Shown here one piece after another: positions 1 to 30,908 of a DNA stretch of 32,000 nucleotides (positions within the stretch are counted from its first letter, which is position 1; each line of letters starts with the position of its first letter). Position numbers and translations under genes: made by a program. Origin of the DNA: Candidatus Karelsulcia muelleri (lineage in GTDB: Bacteria; Bacteroidota; Bacteroidia; Flavobacteriales; Blattabacteriaceae); the NCBI RefSeq assembly GCF_022985615.1, contig NZ_CP094965.1, positions 120,001-152,000 of the forward strand, read 5' to 3'. Under the pieces are notes generated by a model. That model was not told the origin of the DNA, did no database searches, and saw nothing but the letters and a program-made list of their open reading frames with translations.

Positions 1-234
1 AAAATGGTAAGAAATTCCACAATAAAATTAAAAAGAGATAATAAAATTCTTTATGTGGGGAAATTAAATTCTTTGAAAACTTTTAAAAAAGATGTCAATG
101 TAGTAAAAAAAGGTTCTGAATGTGGAATAAATATTAAAAATTTTAATAATATAAAAATAGGAGATATTATAGAATCATATAAGGATTTAGGAGGGAGTTG
201 GAGAATGGGAGGAGAATCTAAGGTAATTTATTGA
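1..234 (+). CDS. infB: translation initiation factor IF-2, C-terminal fragment (5' end lies outside the window)
   Basis: Frame 1 is open from base 1. The translation ...KLNSLKTFKKDVNVVKKGSECGINIKNFNNIKIGDIIESY fits the conserved IF-2 C-terminal beta-barrel pattern (SLKrfKdDV..G.ECGI....GD.IE). TGA stop at 232-234. Confidence 0.8.
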   Translation, partial: KMVRNSTIKLKRDNKILYVGKLNSLKTFKKDVNVVKKGSECGINIKNFNNIKIGDIIESYKDLGGSWRMGGESKVIY

Positions 235-442
235 TATAAATCTGTATTTTTCTTTTTAATCTATTGGCTTTATTTTTATGTATAATTTTTTTTTTTGCTA
301 ATTTATCTATTAAGGATGAAGTTAAACTAAATTTTAGTTGTGCTATTTTTTTATCTTTTACTGATTTATTCTTTTTAATTGCAGTTTTTGTGGATTTAAA
401 AAAATATTTGTTGATTTTGGGAATTTTTTTATGTGAACCCAT
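218..442 (-). CDS. rpsT: 30S ribosomal protein S20
   Basis: 74-aa ORF. MGSHKK... at the N-terminus and ...IDKLAKKKIIHKNKANRLKRK match the S20 signature (M.NhKSa.KR ... dkaakkgvIHKNkAaR.KSrl). Converges on infB with a 17-bp overlap. Confidence 0.8.
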   Translation of the reverse strand: MGSHKKIPKINKYFFKSTKTAIKKNKSVKDKKIAQLKFSLTSSLIDKLAKKKIIHKNKANRLKRKIQIYINKLP

Positions 443-1223: not shown

Positions 1224-1700
1224 TTAATAATTATTTTTAGCAGAATTTATTATTTTTTCTTTACTCGGGTACCAAAGTTTAATTAAGTTTTTGGCATAAG
1301 GAGCTGGAGTATCTTCTAAAGTAATTCTTTTGATTGGAGCATCTAAGTAATCAAAAGCATATTTTTGTACTAAATAAGTAATTTCAGATGAAATAGAACA
1401 AAATGGCCAAGCTTCTTCTAGAATAATTAATCTATTAGTATTGTTTTAATGATTACATCATTAATAGCTGATTTTAAAAGCCCTTTAGCATCATATGCAT
1501 TAGATGGAACTACTACTTTTAATCCAGGACAATGAGCATACAAATTCTCTAAAGATTGTGAATGTGTAGCACCCAATTGACCAGCAAATCCTGTAGGGCA
1601 TCGAAATACTATTGGTAGTTGACCTCCACTCATTTGTCGGATTTTAGCAGCATTATTTATTATTTGATCTATAGCTACTAATGAAAAAAGTCATAAATTA
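1224..1700 (-). pseudogene. pdhB: pyruvate dehydrogenase E1 beta subunit remnant (N-terminus lost, internal deletion, frame changes)
   Basis: Minus-strand fragments translate as [77 protein letters not shown] and, in another frame, [70 protein letters not shown] (stop at 1224-1226). These match the middle and C-terminal parts of E1-beta. About 470 bp remain of a gene I expect to be near 1 kb. The junction lies near 1430-1445, and a 1-nt frame problem sits near 1690. No start codon or N-terminal domain remains before the rpoD stop at 1721. Confidence 0.8.
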
Positions 1701-17314: not shown

Positions 17315-17767
17315 ATGATTCTGAATCATTTAACTCCTCTTCAAGGCTCAAATAAGAAAGGCAAACGATTAGGAAGAGGAAAAGGTTCTGGAAAAGGAAA
17401 AACGGCTACTAGAGGTAATAAAGGGGCTAAATCTCGTTCTGGGAATTCTGTGAAATTAGGATTTGAAGGTGGACAAATGCCTTTCCATAAACGGATTCCC
17501 AAATTTGGATTTAAAAATAGAAATAAAAAAAAATATAAAATATTTAATTTAGAAACGCTAGAAGATCTAATAAATATTGGAAAAGTAAAAAGAAATTTAA
17601 TAAATAATAATGTATTGATAAAAATTGGTTTATTAAAAAAAAAAGAGGTTTTTAAAATCTTAGGAAAAGGGGAATTAACTCATAAAATAAAACTTTTTGC
17701 TCATAAGTTTAGTAAAAAAGCCTCTCTAAAGATTAAAAAGCTTGGAGGAAAGCCTATAATTAAATAA
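17315..17767 (+). CDS. rplO: 50S ribosomal protein L15
   Basis: L.PLQGSNKKGKRLGRGKGSGKGKTATRGNKGAKSRSG...GFEGGQMPFHKRIPKFGF matches L15. It follows rpsE directly, with no rpmD between them. Confidence 0.95.
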   Translation: MILNHLTPLQGSNKKGKRLGRGKGSGKGKTATRGNKGAKSRSGNSVKLGFEGGQMPFHKRIPKFGFKNRNKKKYKIFNLETLEDLINIGKVKRNLINNNVLIKIGLLKKKEVFKILGKGELTHKIKLFAHKFSKKASLKIKKLGGKPIIK

Positions 17768-17771
17768 ATAA

Positions 17772-17988
17772 ATGACGAAAGCAAAATATATTAAATCCAA
17801 GGTATGGATAGTCAAACAGGCTTTACCAAATGTTACCAAGTACAAAAGGATAGTAACTGGATAAAGGTAAAAATGTAAAAAAAGGGAAAATGAGAAGGAA
17901 TTATATTAAAATTTTACCAGGCGATAAAGTTAAATTGCAGATTTACTATTATGATTTAACTAAAGCAAGAATAATATATAGATACTAA
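17772..17988 (+). pseudogene. infA: translation initiation factor IF-1 gene interrupted by a 1-nt frame disruption and an in-frame TAA
   Basis: ATG 17772 opens [30 protein letters not shown], which stops at TAA 17862-17864. Skipping T17862 continues as [41 protein letters not shown] (stop 17986-17988). The joined product is 71 aa, the normal IF-1 size, and its C-terminal half fits the IF-1 pattern GKMR.n.I.ilpGDkV.ve.spYDl.kgRI.yR. Confidence 0.8.
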
Positions 17989-18014
17989 AAGTTATAAAGT
18001 TATAATCTAAAGTT

Positions 18015-18131
18015 ATGAAAAAAGTTACCTCTTTAAAAAGAAGAAGTCAAAATTGCAAAATTGTTAAAAGAAAAGGAAAATTAATAATTATAAATAAAGT
18101 TAAACCGAAATATAAACAAAAACAAAGATAA
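18015..18131 (+). CDS. rpmJ: 50S ribosomal protein L36
   Basis: Below the ORF-track size cut-off. My hand translation is MKKVTSLKRRSQNCKIVKRKGKLIIINKVKPKYKQKQR* (38 aa), which matches L36 (MKVr.SvKk.C..CkivkRkG.v.vIc..pkhKQrQg). Confidence 0.88.
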   Translation: MKKVTSLKRRSQNCKIVKRKGKLIIINKVKPKYKQKQR

Positions 18132-21796: not shown

Positions 21797-21903
21797 TTTA
21801 TCGCATTGTTTGTTTTTAAACAAACAATGAGGAAAGTAAAGTATGTTAAGTATAAGTATAAGTATAAGTATAAGTATAAGTATGTTGATTTATCGCATTG
21901 TTT
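21788..21903. repeat. duplicated copies of the rnpB 5' segment separated by a (GTATAA)5 microsatellite
   Basis: A 50-nt block GTATGTTGATTTATCGCATTGTTTGTTTTTAAACAAACAATGAGGAAAGT at 21788-21837 is identical to 21906-21955, the true rnpB 5' end. A 24-nt partial copy lies at 21880-21903, and an 8-nt start (GTATGTTA) lies at 21841-21848. GTATAA x5 occupies 21850-21879. Confidence 0.92.
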
Positions 21904-22225
21904 AAGTATGTTGATTTATCGCATTGTTTGTTTTTAAACAAACAATGAGGAAAGTCTGGAATCACTAGGGATAACGCAACGGGTAACTCCCGTACATCGT
22001 GAGATGAGGAATAGTGCAACAGAAAGTATGTACAGTTGAGCTGTAGTGAAATCATGTAAACTCTGTGTTGTGAAATGCCAAATATACCAGAAGTATAGTA
22101 GTATAGTTCATCCCTAACTAAATATCTGCTAACTAAATATCTGGGGGGTAGGCAGATCGAGATAAAGGGTAACTTTTATCCTAGATAAATGATAAATTAA
22201 ACTGAATCCGGCTTATAACATACTT
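21904..22225 (+). ncRNA. rnpB: RNase P RNA (bacterial type A-like, reduced)
   Basis: The conserved blocks are present: GAGGAAAGTCTGG (CR-I/P4 5' strand), ACAGAAAGTATG, and AAACTGAATCCGGCTTATAACATACTT (CR-V/P4 3' strand plus P1 3' strand). The 5' AAGTATGTT and 3' AACATACTT pair as P1. Confidence 0.85.
22114..22143. repeat. perfect 15-bp tandem duplication inside the RNase P RNA gene
   Basis: CTAACTAAATATCTG occurs twice back to back, between the conserved core blocks of rnpB. Confidence 0.9.
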
Positions 22226-22229
22226 TTTT

Positions 22230-23906
22230 TTAAAAATATTTCTCTATATTATTTATATCTAATAAGAATAAGATTTTTTGTTTGAATTTTAATAAATTAT
22301 CAATTTTTAATATTTGTTTTATTAGCTTCCTTATTGTTAAGGAAGCAATCTTTTGTTTTGTTTCTAATTTATAAAAATTATATATATTTTTATATATTAA
22401 TTTTTCAATGATTTTATCATCTTGGTAAATATAAAGATCATATAATAACCTATATACATATATTTTTTTTAAAAACTTAGGAGAATAAGTAATTGAAATA
22501 GAATTTTCAAAACATTTTATTTTAAAACCAAAATTAATTAAAATTTCTATAATTTTGGTTTTAGTTTTTTTAGTAAAAAATTTATTCAATTTAATATTTA
22601 TCGGTGGGTATAATTTATAGATTTTGTGTTTTTTTATTTCTTTTTTAAACTTATCCTCTAAAATTATTTTATAGACTCTATCTTTATGAATAATTAAAAC
22701 ACCAAAATCTAAAAGACATAATATATATTTTTTATAGATCTTAAATTGGGTAAAATCCAGATCTATTTTCTTAAGATCTATTTTCTTAAGAAATATTTTA
22801 TTAAGAAATATTTTCTTAAGAAATATTTTATTAAGAAATTCTTGACAATTATTATTTAGGTTGCGGTTTTTTTCTTCTTTATCTTTTTTTTTAGAGTAAA
22901 ACTTAAAAATATTCTGTAGGCCTAAATATTCTTTAATTATTATATTTATATTTTTACAAATTTCTGACTCTGATTTAATGAGTATTTTGTTTTTGGATTG
23001 ACAAATATTAATTTCAATTTGTTTGGTTGGAATAGTAAGAAATAAAAAATAATTTGGTTTATTAGTTTTGTTTATTAGACCGTTATAGGCTTTAATAATA
23101 GACTTGTGAATTCTTTTGTTTACTACGTATCTATTATTAACAAACAAATAATAATTCTTAAATTGAGTATTAAAAAAACTTGTAGAAGTGATATATCCTT
23201 TTATAAGAAATAATTTATCTTTTTTAAAAACTTTGATTAAGACATTTTTATAATATTCGCCAAAAATTTTAATTATTCTATATTTTAGATTTGATTTTTT
23301 TAAACTGGTAATTATCTTATTATTATGCATCATAACAAAATTAATATCAGGGTGTGAAAGAACTATCTTATTAAATTCTGATATGATATATCTTAATTCA
23401 ATATGGGCAGATTTTAAAAAGTTTTTTCTATTGGGGAAATTGTAAAATAAGTTTTTCACATATATACTAGTACCATTTAATAAATTATTTAATAATACAG
23501 GGGGATATTTAAGCTTTTGATTTTCTAATGTTAAGAAGACTCCAAATTCTGATTTGGTTTTTTTAGTGTATATTTCTACCTGGCTAACTAAAGAAATATA
23601 GTATAAAGCTTCACCTCGAAAGCCTTTAGTATTTAGTGATTTGATATCTTTAAGAGAATATAATTTGGAAGTATAAAATCTCCTAATACTATTTTTCGCT
23701 TCTAAATGATTCATTCCATCACCATCATCTATAACATTAATTAAATCTTTCCCACCATTCAATAATATCAATTTAATATTTTTTGAATGTGCATCAATTG
23801 AGTTTTCTAATAATTCTTTTACTACAGAAGCTGGTCTTTTAATTACATATCCTGCTGAAATTTTATTTGAATCTTGTGTGGGTAGAATTTTTATGGTATT
23901 TTTCAT
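22230..23906 (-). CDS. mutL: DNA mismatch repair protein MutL homologue (N-terminal GHKL ATPase recognisable, C-terminal domain degenerate)
   Basis: The N-terminus reads IKILPTQDSNKISAGYVIKRPASVVKELLENSIDAHSKNIKLILLNGGKDLINVIDDGDGM...KGFRGEAL. In the C-terminal part I cannot find DQHA(x)2E(x)4E: the aligned position reads LIIHKDRVYKIILED. I also cannot find a CPHGRP-like motif. Confidence 0.8.
   Translation of the reverse strand: MKNTIKILPTQDSNKISAGYVIKRPASVVKELLENSIDAHSKNIKLILLNGGKDLINVIDDGDGMNHLEAKNSIRRFYTSKLYSLKDIKSLNTKGFRGEALYYISLVSQVEIYTKKTKSEFGVFLTLENQKLKYPPVLLNNLLNGTSIYVKNLFYNFPNRKNFLKSAHIELRYIISEFNKIVLSHPDINFVMMHNNKIITSLKKSNLKYRIIKIFGEYYKNVLIKVFKKDKLFLIKGYITSTSFFNTQFKNYYLFVNNRYVVNKRIHKSIIKAYNGLINKTNKPNYFLFLTIPTKQIEINICQSKNKILIKSESEICKNINIIIKEYLGLQNIFKFYSKKKDKEEKNRNLNNNCQEFLNKIFLKKIFLNKIFLKKIDLKKIDLDFTQFKIYKKYILCLLDFGVLIIHKDRVYKIILEDKFKKEIKKHKIYKLYPPINIKLNKFFTKKTKTKIIEILINFGFKIKCFENSISITYSPKFLKKIYVYRLLYDLYIYQDDKIIEKLIYKNIYNFYKLETKQKIASLTIRKLIKQILKIDNLLKFKQKILFLLDINNIEKYF
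22759..22839. repeat. 15-bp tandem array (about 5.4 units) inside mutL
   Basis: The units are AGATCTATTTTCTTA x2 followed by AGAAATATTTT(A/C)TTA x3, plus a partial unit. They encode FLNKIFLKKIFLNKIFLKKIDLKKIDL in the linker between the N- and C-terminal domains, in-frame. Confidence 0.9.
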
Positions 23907-25421: not shown

Positions 25422-25453
25422 ATATTAAGACCTTGAAATATTAAGACCTTGAA
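25422..25453. repeat. perfect 16-bp tandem duplication covering the 3' acceptor end of tRNA-Arg
   Basis: ATATTAAGACCTTGAA occurs twice back to back. Copy 2 contains the tRNA 3' acceptor strand (GACCTTG on the + strand). Copy 1 repeats it in the lysS-tRNA spacer. Confidence 0.9.
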
Positions 25454-25517
25454 GGGAGTTGAACCCTTACTCTTCTGATCCGTAGTCAGATGCTTTATCC
25501 AATTAAGCTACAAGGCC
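25444..25517 (-). tRNA. tRNA-Arg (anticodon ACG)
   Basis: The reverse complement GGCCTTG TA GCTT AATTGGATA AAGC A TCTGA CTACGGA TCAGA AGAGT AAGGG TTCAACT CCCTT CAAGGTC T folds as a 74-nt cloverleaf with anticodon ACG. Confidence 0.85.
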
Positions 25518-25640: not shown

Positions 25641-26630
25641 ATGAAACCAATTACCAATGAAATATATTTGAAATGGTATAAAGATATGTCGTTTTGGAGA
25701 AAATTTGAAGAAAAATGCCGATCATTATATTTAAAACAAAAAATAAGTGGCTTTCTCCATTTATATAGTGGTCAAGAGGCTATACCTGCCGGTATTACTT
25801 ATGTGATGAATCTAAAAAAAGATAATATGATTACAGGGTATAGATGTCATATACTTGCTTTATCTATGGGAATAGACCCAAAAAAGGTTATGGCAGAATT
25901 ATTTGGAAAAAAAACTGGAACTTCTTGTGGTTTAGGTGGATCGATGCATATATTTAGTAAAAAATATCGATTTTATGGTGGATATGGAATTGTAGGGGGA
26001 CAAATACCATTAGGAGCAGGTATCGCCTTTGCTGATAAATACTTTAATAGAGAAGCAGTGACGGTGACGATTATGGGAGATGGTGCTATTTGGCAAGGGG
26101 CTTTACATGAAACCTTCAATATGTCCGTAATTTTAAAATTACCAGTAGTTTATATCTGCGAAAACAATAAATACGCAATGGGAACTTCAGTTAAAAAAAG
26201 TTCTTGTATTAAAAATATTTTCCAACTTGGATTATCATACAATATGCCCTCTAAATCAGTAGACGGCAGTAGCCCATTTAAAATTGCTAAAGCAGTTGAC
26301 AAAGCTATTCAAAGAGCTAAAACTGGAAAAGGACCTACTTTTTTAGAAATATTAACTTACAGATTCAGAGGCCATTCAATGTCTGATCCTGAAAGTTATA
26401 GAACAAGAGCTGAAGTAATAGAACAGAAAAAAAATGATCCAATTTTAAAAATTAAAAACAAAATATTAGAAAGAAAAATTATGACTAAAAAGTTATTAAA
26501 AGCCTTGGATTTAGAATTAATAAAAAAAATAGATGAATGTGTTGTATTTGCAGAAAATTCTGATTATCCACCCCAAAAAACTAGGTTTAATGTGGTTTAT
26601 TCTCAAAAAAAATATCCTTTTTTAAAATAA
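25641..26630 (+). CDS. pdhA: pyruvate dehydrogenase E1 component, alpha subunit
   Basis: 329-aa ORF. LHLYSGQEAIPAGI, GKKTGTSCGLGGSMH, the thiamine-diphosphate block MGDGAIWQGALHETFNMSVILKLPVVYICENNKYAMGT, and YRFRGHSMSDP are all present. Confidence 0.93.
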   Translation: MKPITNEIYLKWYKDMSFWRKFEEKCRSLYLKQKISGFLHLYSGQEAIPAGITYVMNLKKDNMITGYRCHILALSMGIDPKKVMAELFGKKTGTSCGLGGSMHIFSKKYRFYGGYGIVGGQIPLGAGIAFADKYFNREAVTVTIMGDGAIWQGALHETFNMSVILKLPVVYICENNKYAMGTSVKKSSCIKNIFQLGLSYNMPSKSVDGSSPFKIAKAVDKAIQRAKTGKGPTFLEILTYRFRGHSMSDPESYRTRAEVIEQKKNDPILKIKNKILERKIMTKKLLKALDLELIKKIDECVVFAENSDYPPQKTRFNVVYSQKKYPFLK

Positions 26631-26647
26631 AAGTCCAAGTAACAAAA

Positions 26648-27742
26648 ATGGCAGAGATAATTTACATGCCACGTTTAAGTGATACTATGAAAGAAGGTAC
26701 AATAGTAAAATGGTATAAAAAAGTAGGAGAAAAAGTATTAAATGGAGAAATTTTAGCAGAAATAGAAACAGATAAAGCTATTCAAGAATTTGAATCCGAA
26801 TATAAGGCTACTCTTCTCTATATAGGAGTTAAAGAAGGAGAAAAAGCAAAAGTAAATGATATTTTGGCTATTATGGGTGAAAGAAATGAAAATATAGATT
26901 ATTTAATAAAGAAGAATAAGAATAAAAAAATTTTAGTATCCCCATTAGCAAAAAAAATAGCTTTAGAAAAAGGTATCAAATTAAAAACCTTAAAAGGAAG
27001 TGGACCAAAAAACAGAATTGTTAAAAAAGACATAATAAAAAGTATCAAAACAAAAAATAATAAAAAATATAAAATTAAAAATATTTCTAATATAAGGAAA
27101 ATCATTAGTGAACGCTTATTAAAATCAAAAAAGATTTCTCCACATTATTATTTATTTATCGAAATTCCTGCAGATAATTTAATAAGATTTAAAAAATATA
27201 TTAATAAAAAATATACTAGTAAAATTTCTTTTAATGATTTAATAGTGAAAGCTACTGCTTTATCACTTAAAAAAAATCAAAAAATAAATTCTTCATTGAA
27301 GAAAGAAAGGATTATATATCACAAAGATATTAATATAGGTATTGCTGTTTCCTTACCGGAAGGACTAATTGTACCGGTAATAAATACCGTGGAAAAAAAA
27401 TCTTTAATAAAAATTTCCAAAGAAATAAAAGAAAAAATAAAAAGATATAGAAATAAAAAAATTTCTAACAATGAATTAGAAGGAAGTACTTTTACAATTT
27501 CTAATTTAGGTATGTTTGGGATAGATTGTTTTACTTCTATAATAAATCAACCTAATTCGAGTATTTTATCAGTAGGAAGTATTCAAAGAAAACCTATAGT
27601 TGATAAAAACAAAATAAAAATAGGAAATACTATTAAATTTACTTTAGCTTGTGATCATAGAATTATAGATGGTGTAATAGGTAGTACCTTTTTACTTACT
27701 TTAAAAGAATACTTATTAGAACCAATTACTATGTTAATTTAA
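26648..27742 (+). CDS. dihydrolipoamide acyltransferase (2-oxoacid dehydrogenase E2 component)
   Basis: The lipoyl domain (MPRLSDTMKEGTIVKWYKKVGEKV..GEILAEIETDKAIQEFES), the E3/E1-binding domain (VSPLAKKIALEKGIKLKTLKGSGPKNRIVKKDI) and the catalytic domain with LACDHRIIDGVIGSTFL are all present. It lies directly downstream of pdhA. Confidence 0.92.
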   Translation: MAEIIYMPRLSDTMKEGTIVKWYKKVGEKVLNGEILAEIETDKAIQEFESEYKATLLYIGVKEGEKAKVNDILAIMGERNENIDYLIKKNKNKKILVSPLAKKIALEKGIKLKTLKGSGPKNRIVKKDIIKSIKTKNNKKYKIKNISNIRKIISERLLKSKKISPHYYLFIEIPADNLIRFKKYINKKYTSKISFNDLIVKATALSLKKNQKINSSLKKERIIYHKDINIGIAVSLPEGLIVPVINTVEKKSLIKISKEIKEKIKRYRNKKISNNELEGSTFTISNLGMFGIDCFTSIINQPNSSILSVGSIQRKPIVDKNKIKIGNTIKFTLACDHRIIDGVIGSTFLLTLKEYLLEPITMLI

Positions 27743-28255
27743 TTTAGTAAGTAATCTTTTTTTGTTTTTAGGAATCTTTTTTAAGAACTCTATTCCATTA
27801 TTTTTAAATTCGAAAATAATGTTTTTAATACCATTTGTAAGAACGAGATATTGGCTTTTGAATCTCAAATAATATTTCATTATTTGATCAAAAGATTTAG
27901 ATGAAATCTTTACTTCAGGAGATTTACATTCAACCATTATAAATGGTCTTTTTTTTTTAAGAACTAGAATATCTATCCGATTTTTAATATTATAAAAAGT
28001 TGAATGGAATTCGACATATATTTCATGAACATTATAGCCTCTATTTTTTATTAGATAATAAATTATCTTTTGTCTCACTAATTCTTCTTTAGTTAAAAGA
28101 TAATATTTTTTTCTAATTAAGCAAAAAACGTACATTTTACCGTTAAATGTTTTTATCTTATTTTTTATATTACATTTATTCAATAGCTTGTAATTTCTTT
28201 TTTTTATATGATTATGATTAATCTTACAAATATTAAAATTAAAGAAATTAAACAA
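27734..28255 (-). CDS. HsdR_N-like (PD-(D/E)XK fold) domain protein of unknown function
   Basis: 173-aa ORF. LTKEELVRQKIIYYLIKNRGYNVHEIYVEF....NRIDILVLKKKRPFIMVECKSPEV....DQIMKYYL....YLVLTNG fits the pattern of type I restriction enzyme R-subunit N-terminal-domain-only proteins (E..VRQ...yL......i.vE.....R.Di.v......p.l.vECK......Q...Y.......tNG). The start is uncertain because the first 48 nt overlap the holA 5' end. Confidence 0.65.
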   Translation of the reverse strand: MFNFFNFNICKINHNHIKKRNYKLLNKCNIKNKIKTFNGKMYVFCLIRKKYYLLTKEELVRQKIIYYLIKNRGYNVHEIYVEFHSTFYNIKNRIDILVLKKKRPFIMVECKSPEVKISSKSFDQIMKYYLRFKSQYLVLTNGIKNIIFEFKNNGIEFLKKIPKNKKRLLTKLN

Positions 28256-29062
28256 ATTTCTCTTTTTATAGGTGAAGAAGAATATCTTATAAAAGAATAT
28301 ATAGAAGAGATAGAGAATCTTTTAAAGAACAGGATTCTAAATATATTATAGAAGTAAAAGAAGAAGATAGAATAACCAATATTTTACACTCTTACTCTAT
28401 TTAAAGAATATAAGTTAATTATTCTTAAAAATTCGTAAGATCTAAATCTAAGCTTAGATAACTTAGAAAAATTACTAAAAAAGACCTCGAAAAGAAATAT
28501 TTTCATTTTTTGTATTAATTTCGTAATTCACTCACGAAATTTATAATTTTATAATTTTATTAAAAAAAACACAAATAACAACATAGAAATTATAAATAAT
28601 AAAAAATTAACTTTTGGTGAAATTTTGTATTTAGTAAAAAGAAAAATAAAAAAAATAGGCTTAAAGATAAATGAAATAACAGTAAAAAAAATGATACAAT
28701 CTGTTGATTCCAATTTATTTATGCTTGAAAATGAGTTAAAAAAAATAAGATTTAATAATATTAATAATATAGCTGACAATTATAATTATAAACTTCTTCA
28801 TAATGAATTTAAAATAATTTTAAAGATGCTTGAAGTCCACCCCCTAACTTTAATCTTAAATAAGATATATAAACTATACTTAGAAAAAGTTATGACTTAT
28901 AATAATAATGAAGAAAAATTTAATAAAATAGCTAATTTAGTTTTTCTGCTAAAAGAAGCAGAGAAAAAAAATAAGAGCTATTTTTTAAAAAAGGAAGAAA
29001 TAATGAAAGAACTAATTTATAAAATATGTCAAATAGAGAAAGAGAAATCTTTGATTGTATAA
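28208..29062 (+). pseudogene. holA: DNA polymerase III delta subunit gene with five in-frame stop codons and no frameshift
   Basis: A single frame (frame 2) reads MIMINLTNIKIKEIKQISLFIGEEEYLIKEYIEEIENLLKNRILNIL*K*KKKIE*PIFYTLTLFKEYKLIILKNS*DLNLSLDNLEKLLKKTSKRNIFIFCINFVIHSRNL*FYNFIKK...KKLTFGEILYLVKRKIKKIGLKINEITVKKMIQSVDSNLFMLENELKKI...*. The stops are TAG 28349 and TAA at 28355, 28373, 28436 and 28544. The layout resembles delta (vYlf.GeE.yli N-terminus, kl.il.n. block, C-terminal ...a...l....g.dl..l.nEleKl). Confidence 0.75.
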
Positions 29063-29967: not shown

Positions 29968-29990
29968 CCAACCTTATTAAAGTTCAATAA
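29948..29990. repeat. duplication of the last 20 nt of trxB, including its stop codon
   Basis: ACCTTATTAAAGTTCAATAA lies at 29948-29967 (trxB 3' end plus TAA) and again at 29971-29990, separated by CCA. Confidence 0.9.
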
Positions 29991-30175
29991 AGAATATAAA
30001 AGAAAAAATAAAAGAAAAAATAAATATTAGATACTTTATTAGATACTTAGAAGTTTTCTTTTCTTATCATGGATTAAGTACAAACAAACAAACATAACAA
30101 AGTACAAATAAACAAACAAACATAACATAACATAACATAAGTAAGTAAGTACAAACAAGTAAGTAAAGTACAAAC

Positions 30176-30247
30176 ATTATTTACATTTTTAATTCTTTTA
30201 TTATTTACATTTTTAATTCTTTTATTATTTACATTTTTAATTCTTTT
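30176..30247. repeat. perfect 24-bp tandem repeat x3 (ATTATTTACATTTTTAATTCTTTT)
   Basis: Direct reading: three identical adjacent units in the trxB-ilvC spacer. Confidence 0.9.
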
Positions 30248-30260
30248 TTCTTTTACAAAT

Positions 30261-30471
30261 AGCAGTTAGCTGCTAATCAGCAGTTAGCTGCTTATCAGCA
30301 GTTAGCAGCAGTTAGTTAGCAGCAGTTAGCTGCTAATCAGCAGTTAGCAGCAGTTAGTTAGCAGCAGTTAGCTGCTAATCAGCAGTTAGTTAGCAATCGT
30401 TAGCTAATGCTAATCAATCAATCAGCAAGCAGTTTGCTAATCAATCAATCAGTTAGTTAGCTAATGCTAAG
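30261..30471. repeat. relatively GC-rich minisatellite built from AGCAGTTAGC / TGCTAATC / TTAGC modules, with a 42-bp higher-order unit
   Basis: The region reads as A(AGCAGTTAGCTGCTAATC) A' B(AGCAGTTAGC) C(AGCAGTTAGTTAGC) A B C A C, followed by degenerate variants (..CGTTAGCTAATGCTAATCAATCAATC..). The B-C-A block (42 bp) occurs twice in tandem. All six frames contain stops. Confidence 0.9.
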
Positions 30472-30588
30472 TTTTAATAAGTATTTCTTAAAAAAGATAT
30501 TTATTATTTTATTATTTATTACTTTTATATTAAAAAAAGTTTTTTAGCGATTATTAATAAATTGTTGTAAACTAGGATCTTTATTAGG

Positions 30589-30648
30589 ACTTACTTACTT
30601 GTGTTTACAGTAACTTGTTTTTACAGTAACTTACTTGTGTTTACAGTA
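30589..30648. repeat. three tandem variants of an ACTT(ACTT)GTGTTTACAGTA unit
   Basis: The units are ACTTACTTACTTGTGTTTACAGTA / ACTTGTTTTTACAGTA / ACTTACTTGTGTTTACAGTA. The reverse complement resembles the GTAAGTAAGTACAAACAAGTAAGTAA tract at 30141-30176. Confidence 0.8.
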
Positions 30649-30908
30649 AATTGCCTTCATTTTATTCCAAAGTATTTTTTTTAAAAGCTATTATTTTAAA
30701 TAAATTCTTAAAAAGATCTCTTTTTTAAATTATTATTTTTTAATTATTAATTATTAGAAAGTTTATTTCTATTTCTTATATAAGAAGAGAAAATATATAG
30801 AAATAATTCTGATAATAAGATAAAATATCAATAAACAATTGTAAATAACATTTTTTGTTTTCTTTATAATATTTTTTTCTTTTTCTTTATCTTTTCGTTT
30901 CATTTATC

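Follow-up and report, generated by a model that had tools for sequence, protein, structure and literature searches.

Probable inherited decay of the initiation factor gene infA by several indels in a planthopper Sulcia

Translation initiation factor IF-1, encoded by infA, is essential in free-living bacteria. In the plastid genomes of angiosperms the gene has reportedly been pseudogenised or lost repeatedly, with transfer to the nucleus, and nuclear infA copies carrying transit peptides are documented. The Sulcia case described below resembles that of the plastids: decay is parallel and independent in close lineages, the genome is host-dependent, and remnants are left at the ribosomal-protein cluster position. 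We know of no host-encoded IF-1 replacement in planthoppers. In the endosymbionts Buchnera and Blochmannia, transcriptional slippage on poly(A) runs is said to rescue broken genes. Both this slippage and the +1 frameshifting of prfB share with the present locus a stop codon in frame where the shift would take place, an AT-rich endosymbiont genome and A-runs nearby. The locus differs from these systems in having no slippery codon, a site that is not conserved among relatives, A-runs that lie downstream of the stops and a product that is not an intact member of its family.

The infABC genes are 'generally retained' in hemipteran symbionts (PMC9379567). The Sulcia of Nesophrosyne leafhoppers has nevertheless lost infC (IF-3) at least six times (iScience 2022, PMC9379567), a case like the present one in the recurrent loss of an initiation factor but different in that infC is lost while infA and infB are kept. 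Loss of infA is reported for Sulcia-TRYOCC of Trypetimorpha occidentalis (Tropiduchidae), with infA stated to be present in other planthopper Sulcia including Sulcia-PYRCLA (mSystems 2024, PMC11264691). TRYOCC belongs to the same symbiont genus and the same host suborder as the locus studied here, and it has likewise lost IF-1 and kept infB. Its infA is reported lost from a rearranged two-chromosome genome, whereas here a recognisable 217-nt remnant remains in conserved synteny; the two are independent events in different host families. IF-1 pseudogenes and losses are also described in Walczuchella and other scale-insect Bacteroidota symbionts, where the authors call the absence striking because the gene is usually kept (bioRxiv 10.1101/2024.10.23.619753; 10.1101/2025.10.31.685726). 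These too are Bacteroidota insect endosymbionts in which some genomes have infA missing or pseudogenised, but the symbiont genera and the hosts are others. Three Sulcia genomes of 155.8-156.7 kb are known from Pyrops lanternflies (Fulgoridae), two of the three with acoB and holA pseudogenes (Deng et al. 2023, PMC10333215). The main texts of Deng et al. 2023 and Michalik et al. 2021 do not mention infA, and the state of the gene in the Sulcia of Pyrops and in Candidatus Karelsulcia (Sulcia) muelleri DICMUL, from Dictyophara, appears under-reported.

The infA locus and its reading frames

The window, that is, the whole 32,000-nt stretch of DNA that was analysed, has a G+C content of about 25% and carries a ribosomal-protein operon of the Bacteroidota type. 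The features at infA are as follows.

17315..17767, plus strand: rplO (L15), upstream neighbour of the infA remnant
17772..17988, plus strand: infA, very probably a pseudogene, 217 nt (intact orthologues 216 nt), assigned by synteny and alignment to seven intact Sulcia infA genes
17772..17864, plus strand: 5′ remnant ORF, 30 codons and TAA (ORF reading; tblastn alignment)
17857..17988, plus strand: downstream open frame with the IF-1 C-terminal half, 43 codons from CTG 17857 (ORF reading and HMM matches)
17877..17883, plus strand: A7 run, downstream of both frame-1 stops
18015..18131, plus strand: rpmJ (L36), downstream neighbour of the infA remnant

The gene order rplO-infA-rpmJ-rpsM is the same at all Sulcia loci compared, the window included, and the window's infA combines homology with the conserved position between rplO/secY and rpmJ. 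Neither secY nor map lies between rplO and infA at the window (17767-17772) or at any planthopper Sulcia locus examined. The 218-kb genome of Sulcia-ENCA still has a 431-aa ORF, presumably secY, between the two genes (locus L003, 2395-3690).

As an earlier note on this DNA had read it, ATG 17772 opens an ORF of 30 codons that ends at TAA 17862-17864, and the frame taken up at 17863 runs for 41 codons to ...ARIIYRY and TAA 17986-17988, which makes 71 aa in all. The assignment to infA was likewise sound, since the C-terminal half matches PF01176 (E = 1.4e-10) and TIGR00008 (E = 4e-14). In the tblastn alignment the 5′ ORF keeps MTKAKYIKSK..IVKQALPN and RIVTG of IF-1, with the segment of strand beta2 gone; the 30-aa ORF alone has no Pfam or NCBIfam match. 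The first ATG in the downstream frame, at 17890, leaves 32 codons. A 43-aa 'IF-1' CDS with a CTG start, identical to this frame, is annotated in GenBank for all three Pyrops Sulcia genomes. The infA of the window is thus not an uninterrupted ORF of about 71-72 codons, as frame 1 runs for only 30 codons before its stop and the rest of the protein, its C-terminal half, is encoded in another frame. The C-terminal match and the conserved synteny show descent from infA, not function.

The closest relatives of the window are the Pyrops genomes. Its locus is 99.74% identical to CP094964 (155,888 nt; 7 differing positions over 6.1 kb) and 99.17% identical to CP094963 (156,700 nt; 31 differing positions over 6.1 kb), and the C-terminal tail of its IF-2 equals that of a protein cluster from CP094963, CP094964 and a 156,326-nt genome. 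Ribosomal protein S13 is 94% identical to that of DICMUL, other planthopper Sulcia being less similar. Decaying acoB and holA genes elsewhere in the window agree with two of the three Pyrops Sulcia (PMC10333215). From the sequence identities, an infA remnant identical to that of CP094964, the IF-2 tail, the acoB fragment and the split holA-like ORFs, taken with the report of three genomes by Deng et al., we therefore infer that the window comes from the Sulcia of a Pyrops lanternfly, one of the two species other than clavatus.

The two frames are open together only at 17857-17864 (CTGGATAA), so any shift between them must fall at ACU-GGA-UAA; the stretch contains no homopolymer, in line with the earlier observation on the extra base. 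Programmed recoding, proposed in the earlier note as a +1 event at GGA-TAA-A, would have ribosomes shift by +1 or hop at ACU-GGA-UAA-A to give a functional IF-1 of 71 aa. The in-frame stop stands directly after the last sense codon, as at the +1 site of prfB, the frames overlap openly at this very place, and the product would have the length of IF-1; a weak hint from nonsynonymous and synonymous changes in the 3′ half of infA, given below, points the same way. The codon reached by a +1 shift after GGA is GAU, however, which by sequence and base-pairing rules has two mismatches to the Gly anticodon and does not allow tRNA-Gly to re-pair, so that GGA-TAA-A is not slippery. The Shine-Dalgarno-like AAGGA upstream is unchanged in all intact orthologues. 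The site itself is the work of a lineage-specific 5-nt deletion: a related lineage recovered from SRA data has no such site, reads GGA TAT ATA AAA there and has its frame broken at an 11-nt deletion instead. The recoded product would moreover lack beta2, score below the equivalog cut-off for IF-1 and model poorly. Recoding is extremely improbable as an account of this locus.

Two other ways round the break were rejected. For a hop like that of T4 gene 60 there is a take-off GGA followed by a stop; landing on GGA at 17885 or 17897 would resume a frame that stops at 17891 or 17957. For poly(A) transcriptional slippage the runs are on the wrong sides of the stops: A5 and A7 come after both frame-1 stops (17862 and 17868), and the A4 run at 17843-17846 comes before the frame-2 stops at 17851 and 17854. 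Slippage at the A7 run is therefore unable to rescue the frame. The earlier note had drawn the same conclusion from a run correctly placed downstream of the stop, with coordinates (17878-17884) one base too high.

Three indel sites and the probable history of decay

The reference for the lesions consisted of seven intact Sulcia infA genes (OPOL2; CP069424, which is probably Sulcia-CALKRU; CM132425; CM132428; CM132915; a MAG; and the leafhopper-type ENCA), all seven exactly 216 nt and 71 codons long. The break had been put down to a single extra base. Alignment of the DNA to the intact orthologues instead places three indel sites in the 217 nt of the window's infA, of +3, -15 and +13 nt, whose net effect is +1.

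17803..17805, plus strand: lesion site 1, 3 nt (TAT) more than the intact genes; 6 nt more in the SRA lineage (DNA alignment)
17837..17838, plus strand: lesion site 2, junction left by the net loss of 15 nt, which takes out the FKVQL codons of strand beta2 (DNA alignment)
17864..17876, plus strand: lesion site 3, net 13-nt insertion (AAGGTAAAAATGT) (DNA alignment)

The insertion at site 3 sits between beta3 and the short helix. On this alignment, changes of about +1, -5 and +4 codons merely happen to bring the repaired product to 71 aa.

The repaired product is also not the full-length, well-conserved protein it had been taken for. The 71-aa join aligns to IF-1 HMMs over residues 37-71 only (positions 35-69 of the TIGR00008 model), and its TIGR00008 score of 50.7 bits is below both the 61.15-bit equivalog cut-off and the 52.2 bits of the C-terminal fragment alone. 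A join of three frames reaches 55.4 bits, again under 61.15, and does better than the 71-aa join because site 2 consists of an 11-nt and a 4-nt deletion, as the SRA lineage reveals. The three-frame reading was rejected as a sign of function, the KVQ codons being those left out of frame by the two deletions. In 32 homologues F22 is invariant and V24 and L26 are nearly so, and this F-x-V-x-L segment is replaced in the repaired product. The segment corresponds to strand beta2, which spans E21-26 in the AF2 model of an intact orthologue. With the same homologue alignment the intact orthologue is modelled at pLDDT 83.4 and pTM 0.67 and the repaired product at pLDDT 60.5 and pTM 0.44, its pLDDT falling under 50 for residues 19-25 and 29-33, around the lesions; this comparison carries modest weight. 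The repaired product does not have the five-stranded OB barrel that includes beta2, and neither a fragment nor the frameshifted fusion has a complete OB fold.

The same three lesions are found, identical, in CP094963 and CP094964. Independent assemblies of six separate SRA runs (SRR31864622, SRR31864625, SRR31864645, SRR31864646, SRR31864648 and SRR31864651) likewise contain contigs with a split infA, at 98.5% identity to the window. The earlier note had allowed for an assembly error, and a sequencing or assembly error over an intact infA is a general possibility at any locus that looks, as this one superficially does, like the product of a single wrong base. The difference from the intact gene is three multi-base indels, however; the two sister genomes, assembled by Deng et al. 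from short and long reads, are in the same state, and the six SRA runs are in a related one. The probability of such an error is next to negligible.

The SRA lineage has a remnant of 229 nt, in which these three sites stand at +6, -11 and +18 nt relative to intact genes. At site 3 the extra 18 nt form a clean tandem duplication that keeps the frame (YIKGK-KVKKGK-MR), and at site 2 the remnant retains ACCTTAAAAGTACAA, homologous to ACCTTCAAAGTACAA of the intact genes. The homology to intact genes makes the SRA states the ancestral ones at sites 2 and 3, and the losses of TTAA (-4, site 2) and TATAA (-5, site 3) in the window are, on this polarity, derived. All combinations of the observed states (+3 or +6; -11; +13 or +18) are out of frame, so infA was already frameshifted in the common ancestor. 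The series amounts to at least six indel events within a gene of 216 nt.

These states are very probably to be explained as follows. An 11-nt deletion inside the beta2 codons frameshifted infA in the common ancestor of the sampled Pyrops-type Sulcia lineages, and both lineages share in-frame insertions of 6 and 18 nt. The window's lineage then took three more deletions, of 3, 4 and 5 nt, at the same three sites. The last of these, loss of TATAA from the 18-nt tandem duplication, created the TAA at 17862-17864 (GGA-TAA), and the resulting look of a single +1 shift is an accident. Transcription of the remnant along with the ribosomal-protein operon presumably continues, but its coding capacity comes down to an N-terminal peptide of 30 aa and, at most, a C-terminal fragment of 32-43 aa. 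Inactivation, one of the explanations first offered, is thus upheld, but not as a very recent, one-base event: the lesions are shared with CP094963 and CP094964, and the SRA lineage has an older form. The infA of the window is very probably a decaying pseudogene, broken by several indels and inherited, in the genome of about 156 kb of a Pyrops Sulcia.

The remnant carries multiple disabling lesions, and it has gone on gathering indels and substitutions faster than the genes beside it. Against CP094963 it has 4 substitutions in 217 nt and the flanks have 25 in 4595 (one-sided p = 0.039); against the SRA lineage the counts are 6 in 217 and 23 in 2871 (p = 0.014). Overall, its substitution rate is 3-4 times that of the flanks. 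Indels relative to the SRA lineage number three in the 217 nt of the remnant and three in 2871 nt of flanks (Poisson p = 0.0016), and a single one of the flank indels, 3 nt long, is in a coding region. Pairs of genomes with intact infA have no excess of change in infA over the flanks. Measured against CP094963, the remnant has diverged by 0.018, no less than the 0.010 of the flanks at synonymous sites. Relaxed selection before the break left no usable signal, as dN/dS is similar and noisy in intact infA (0.2-0.9) and in the neighbouring ribosomal-protein genes (0.3-0.5).

The 3′ half might still be of use to the cell, either as a C-terminal peptide of 32-43 aa (from ATG 17890 or CTG 17857) that acts at the ribosome by itself or jointly with the N-terminal peptide of 30 aa, or as DNA kept for signals that serve the expression of rpmJ. 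Its protein identity to intact orthologues is 91% (tblastn), and the sister genomes carry the annotated 43-aa CDS. Within the Pyrops group the C-terminal frame has three nonsynonymous to three synonymous changes (5:4 with the stem), below the neutral expectation of about 82% nonsynonymous; with 6-9 changes only and p = 0.06-0.08, this ratio is a weak, non-significant hint of slight residual constraint on the 3′ half. A promoter-like hexamer pair at 17979-18006 overlaps the 3′ end of infA, such matches occurring at chance frequency; a promoter and terminator scan around the locus gave matches at chance level only. Set against this, half an OB barrel (beta4, beta5 and the short helix) would not be expected to fold, and the 3′ half has taken an L>W change in the SRA lineage and, in DICMUL, both P>Q and a nonsense mutation. 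The raised substitution rate of the remnant counts against a function as well. Sulcia evolves slowly, and high similarity is what a young relic in such a genome would have. A function of the fragment is accordingly rated very unlikely, and decay of a pseudogene is the reading retained here.

Probable absence of an IF-1 gene and parallel loss in related symbionts

No second infA was found in the window by tblastn, and the annotation of the sister complete genomes lists none. For these three genomes, no IF-1-like protein other than the truncated 43-aa CDS was found. The window accordingly represents a symbiont without an IF-1 gene of its own, a conclusion that annotation searches support for the sister complete genomes. 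It speaks against this reading that IF-1 counts as essential and that hemipteran symbionts as a rule keep infABC, so that the loss of infA needs some compensation. Translation in this symbiont would have to start either in the absence of IF-1 or with the help of a factor from another source.

In DICMUL infA is a 192-nt remnant with lesions of -1 nt, -23 nt and TCA>TAA (locus L001, 3664-3855). It keeps the sequence missing from the window's infA and is without the window's insertions. Flanking genes totalling 4.6 kb give a tree in which one shallow clade of about 6% divergence unites the Pyrops group with DICMUL and the intact-infA genomes CP069424 and CM132425; the closest relatives of DICMUL keep an intact infA. 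The different lesions and the presence of intact infA within the same shallow clade therefore make the Pyrops and DICMUL inactivations independent. For six DICMUL-like genomes of about 142 kb the database yielded no IF-1 protein, and IF-2 is present, an indirect line of evidence. The rplO ORF of DICMUL reads through into the infA remnant, which lengthens it from 150 to 157 aa.

All these symbionts have a full-length IF-2. Compensation of the mitochondrial type, through an insertion in IF-2, was rejected: aligned with IF-2 of infA-intact genomes, the infA-broken planthopper Sulcia have no insertion specific to them, and the inter-domain linker is shorter. The Pyrops-group IF-2 has only a C-terminal extension of 14 aa (...ESYKDLGGSWRMGGESKVIY), absent from DICMUL and the other planthopper Sulcia IF-2 aligned and probably derived from a lost or shifted stop codon. 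The window starts inside infB, the 3′ end of which is at 4-234 (plus strand).

The loss of infA here is ordinary reductive evolution and a further instance of a known loss, which stands out in that the gene is normally essential and is lost in parallel in sister lineages. The published claim that planthopper Sulcia besides TRYOCC have infA (PMC11264691) is not borne out by the alignment for the Pyrops genomes and needs correction. In the annotation of the three Pyrops Sulcia genomes, infA ought to be entered as a pseudogene rather than as the 43-aa 'IF-1' CDS given in GenBank. The small list of bacteria that have lost IF-1 grows by at least two independent cases, one in the Pyrops clade and one in DICMUL, and the case becomes stronger that these symbionts rely on outside help or on altered initiation at a core step of translation. 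Fulgoridae and Dictyopharidae are a place to seek the compensating mechanism. A wider, unlikely reading of the independent decay in Pyrops, DICMUL and TRYOCC is that IF-1 has become dispensable as a symbiont gene in fulgoroid Sulcia. One possible reason would be supply by the host bacteriocyte, through a host protein that has been retargeted or a gene gained by horizontal transfer; the alternative would be that Sulcia ribosomes have evolved initiation independent of IF-1. A host-supplied IF-1-like factor, if there is one, would be for a bacterial endosymbiont what the move of infA to the nucleus is for plastids.

Other features of the window and of a related contig

Besides infA, the window contains the two other decaying genes used above to place it. 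The region 967-1720, between tRNA-Gln and rpoD, holds a 68-aa ORF (1427-1633, minus strand) that matches Transket_pyr over profile positions 103-156 of 174 and is a remnant of acoB (pyruvate dehydrogenase E1 beta). The genes for E1 alpha and E2 are intact at 25641-27742. At 28208-29062 two short ORFs of 47 and 145 aa, which have no Pfam match, look by eye like a split holA (DNA polymerase III delta). A 173-aa ORF at 27734-28255 (minus strand) strongly matches (E = 2.7e-29) HSDR_N_2, which is the N-terminal domain of the R protein of type I restriction enzymes, an unexpected gene to retain in a genome of 156 kb. The roughly 940 bp from 29968 to 30908, with a thioredoxin-reductase-like gene on one side and ilvC on the other, contain no ORF as long as 70 aa and nothing that matches Rfam or a tRNA, and may be another eroded gene. 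Further features of the window are these.

218-442, minus strand: ribosomal protein S20, 74-aa ORF
460-531: tRNA-Glu-TTC
896-966: tRNA-Gln-TTG
21903-22230: RNase P RNA (165 bits)
25444-25517: tRNA-Arg-ACG

In the Sulcia-like JGI metagenome contig Ga0633543_0057544 (3-1548), infB appears as two overlapping genes of 436 and 96 aa, which suggests a frameshifted gene or a sequencing error.
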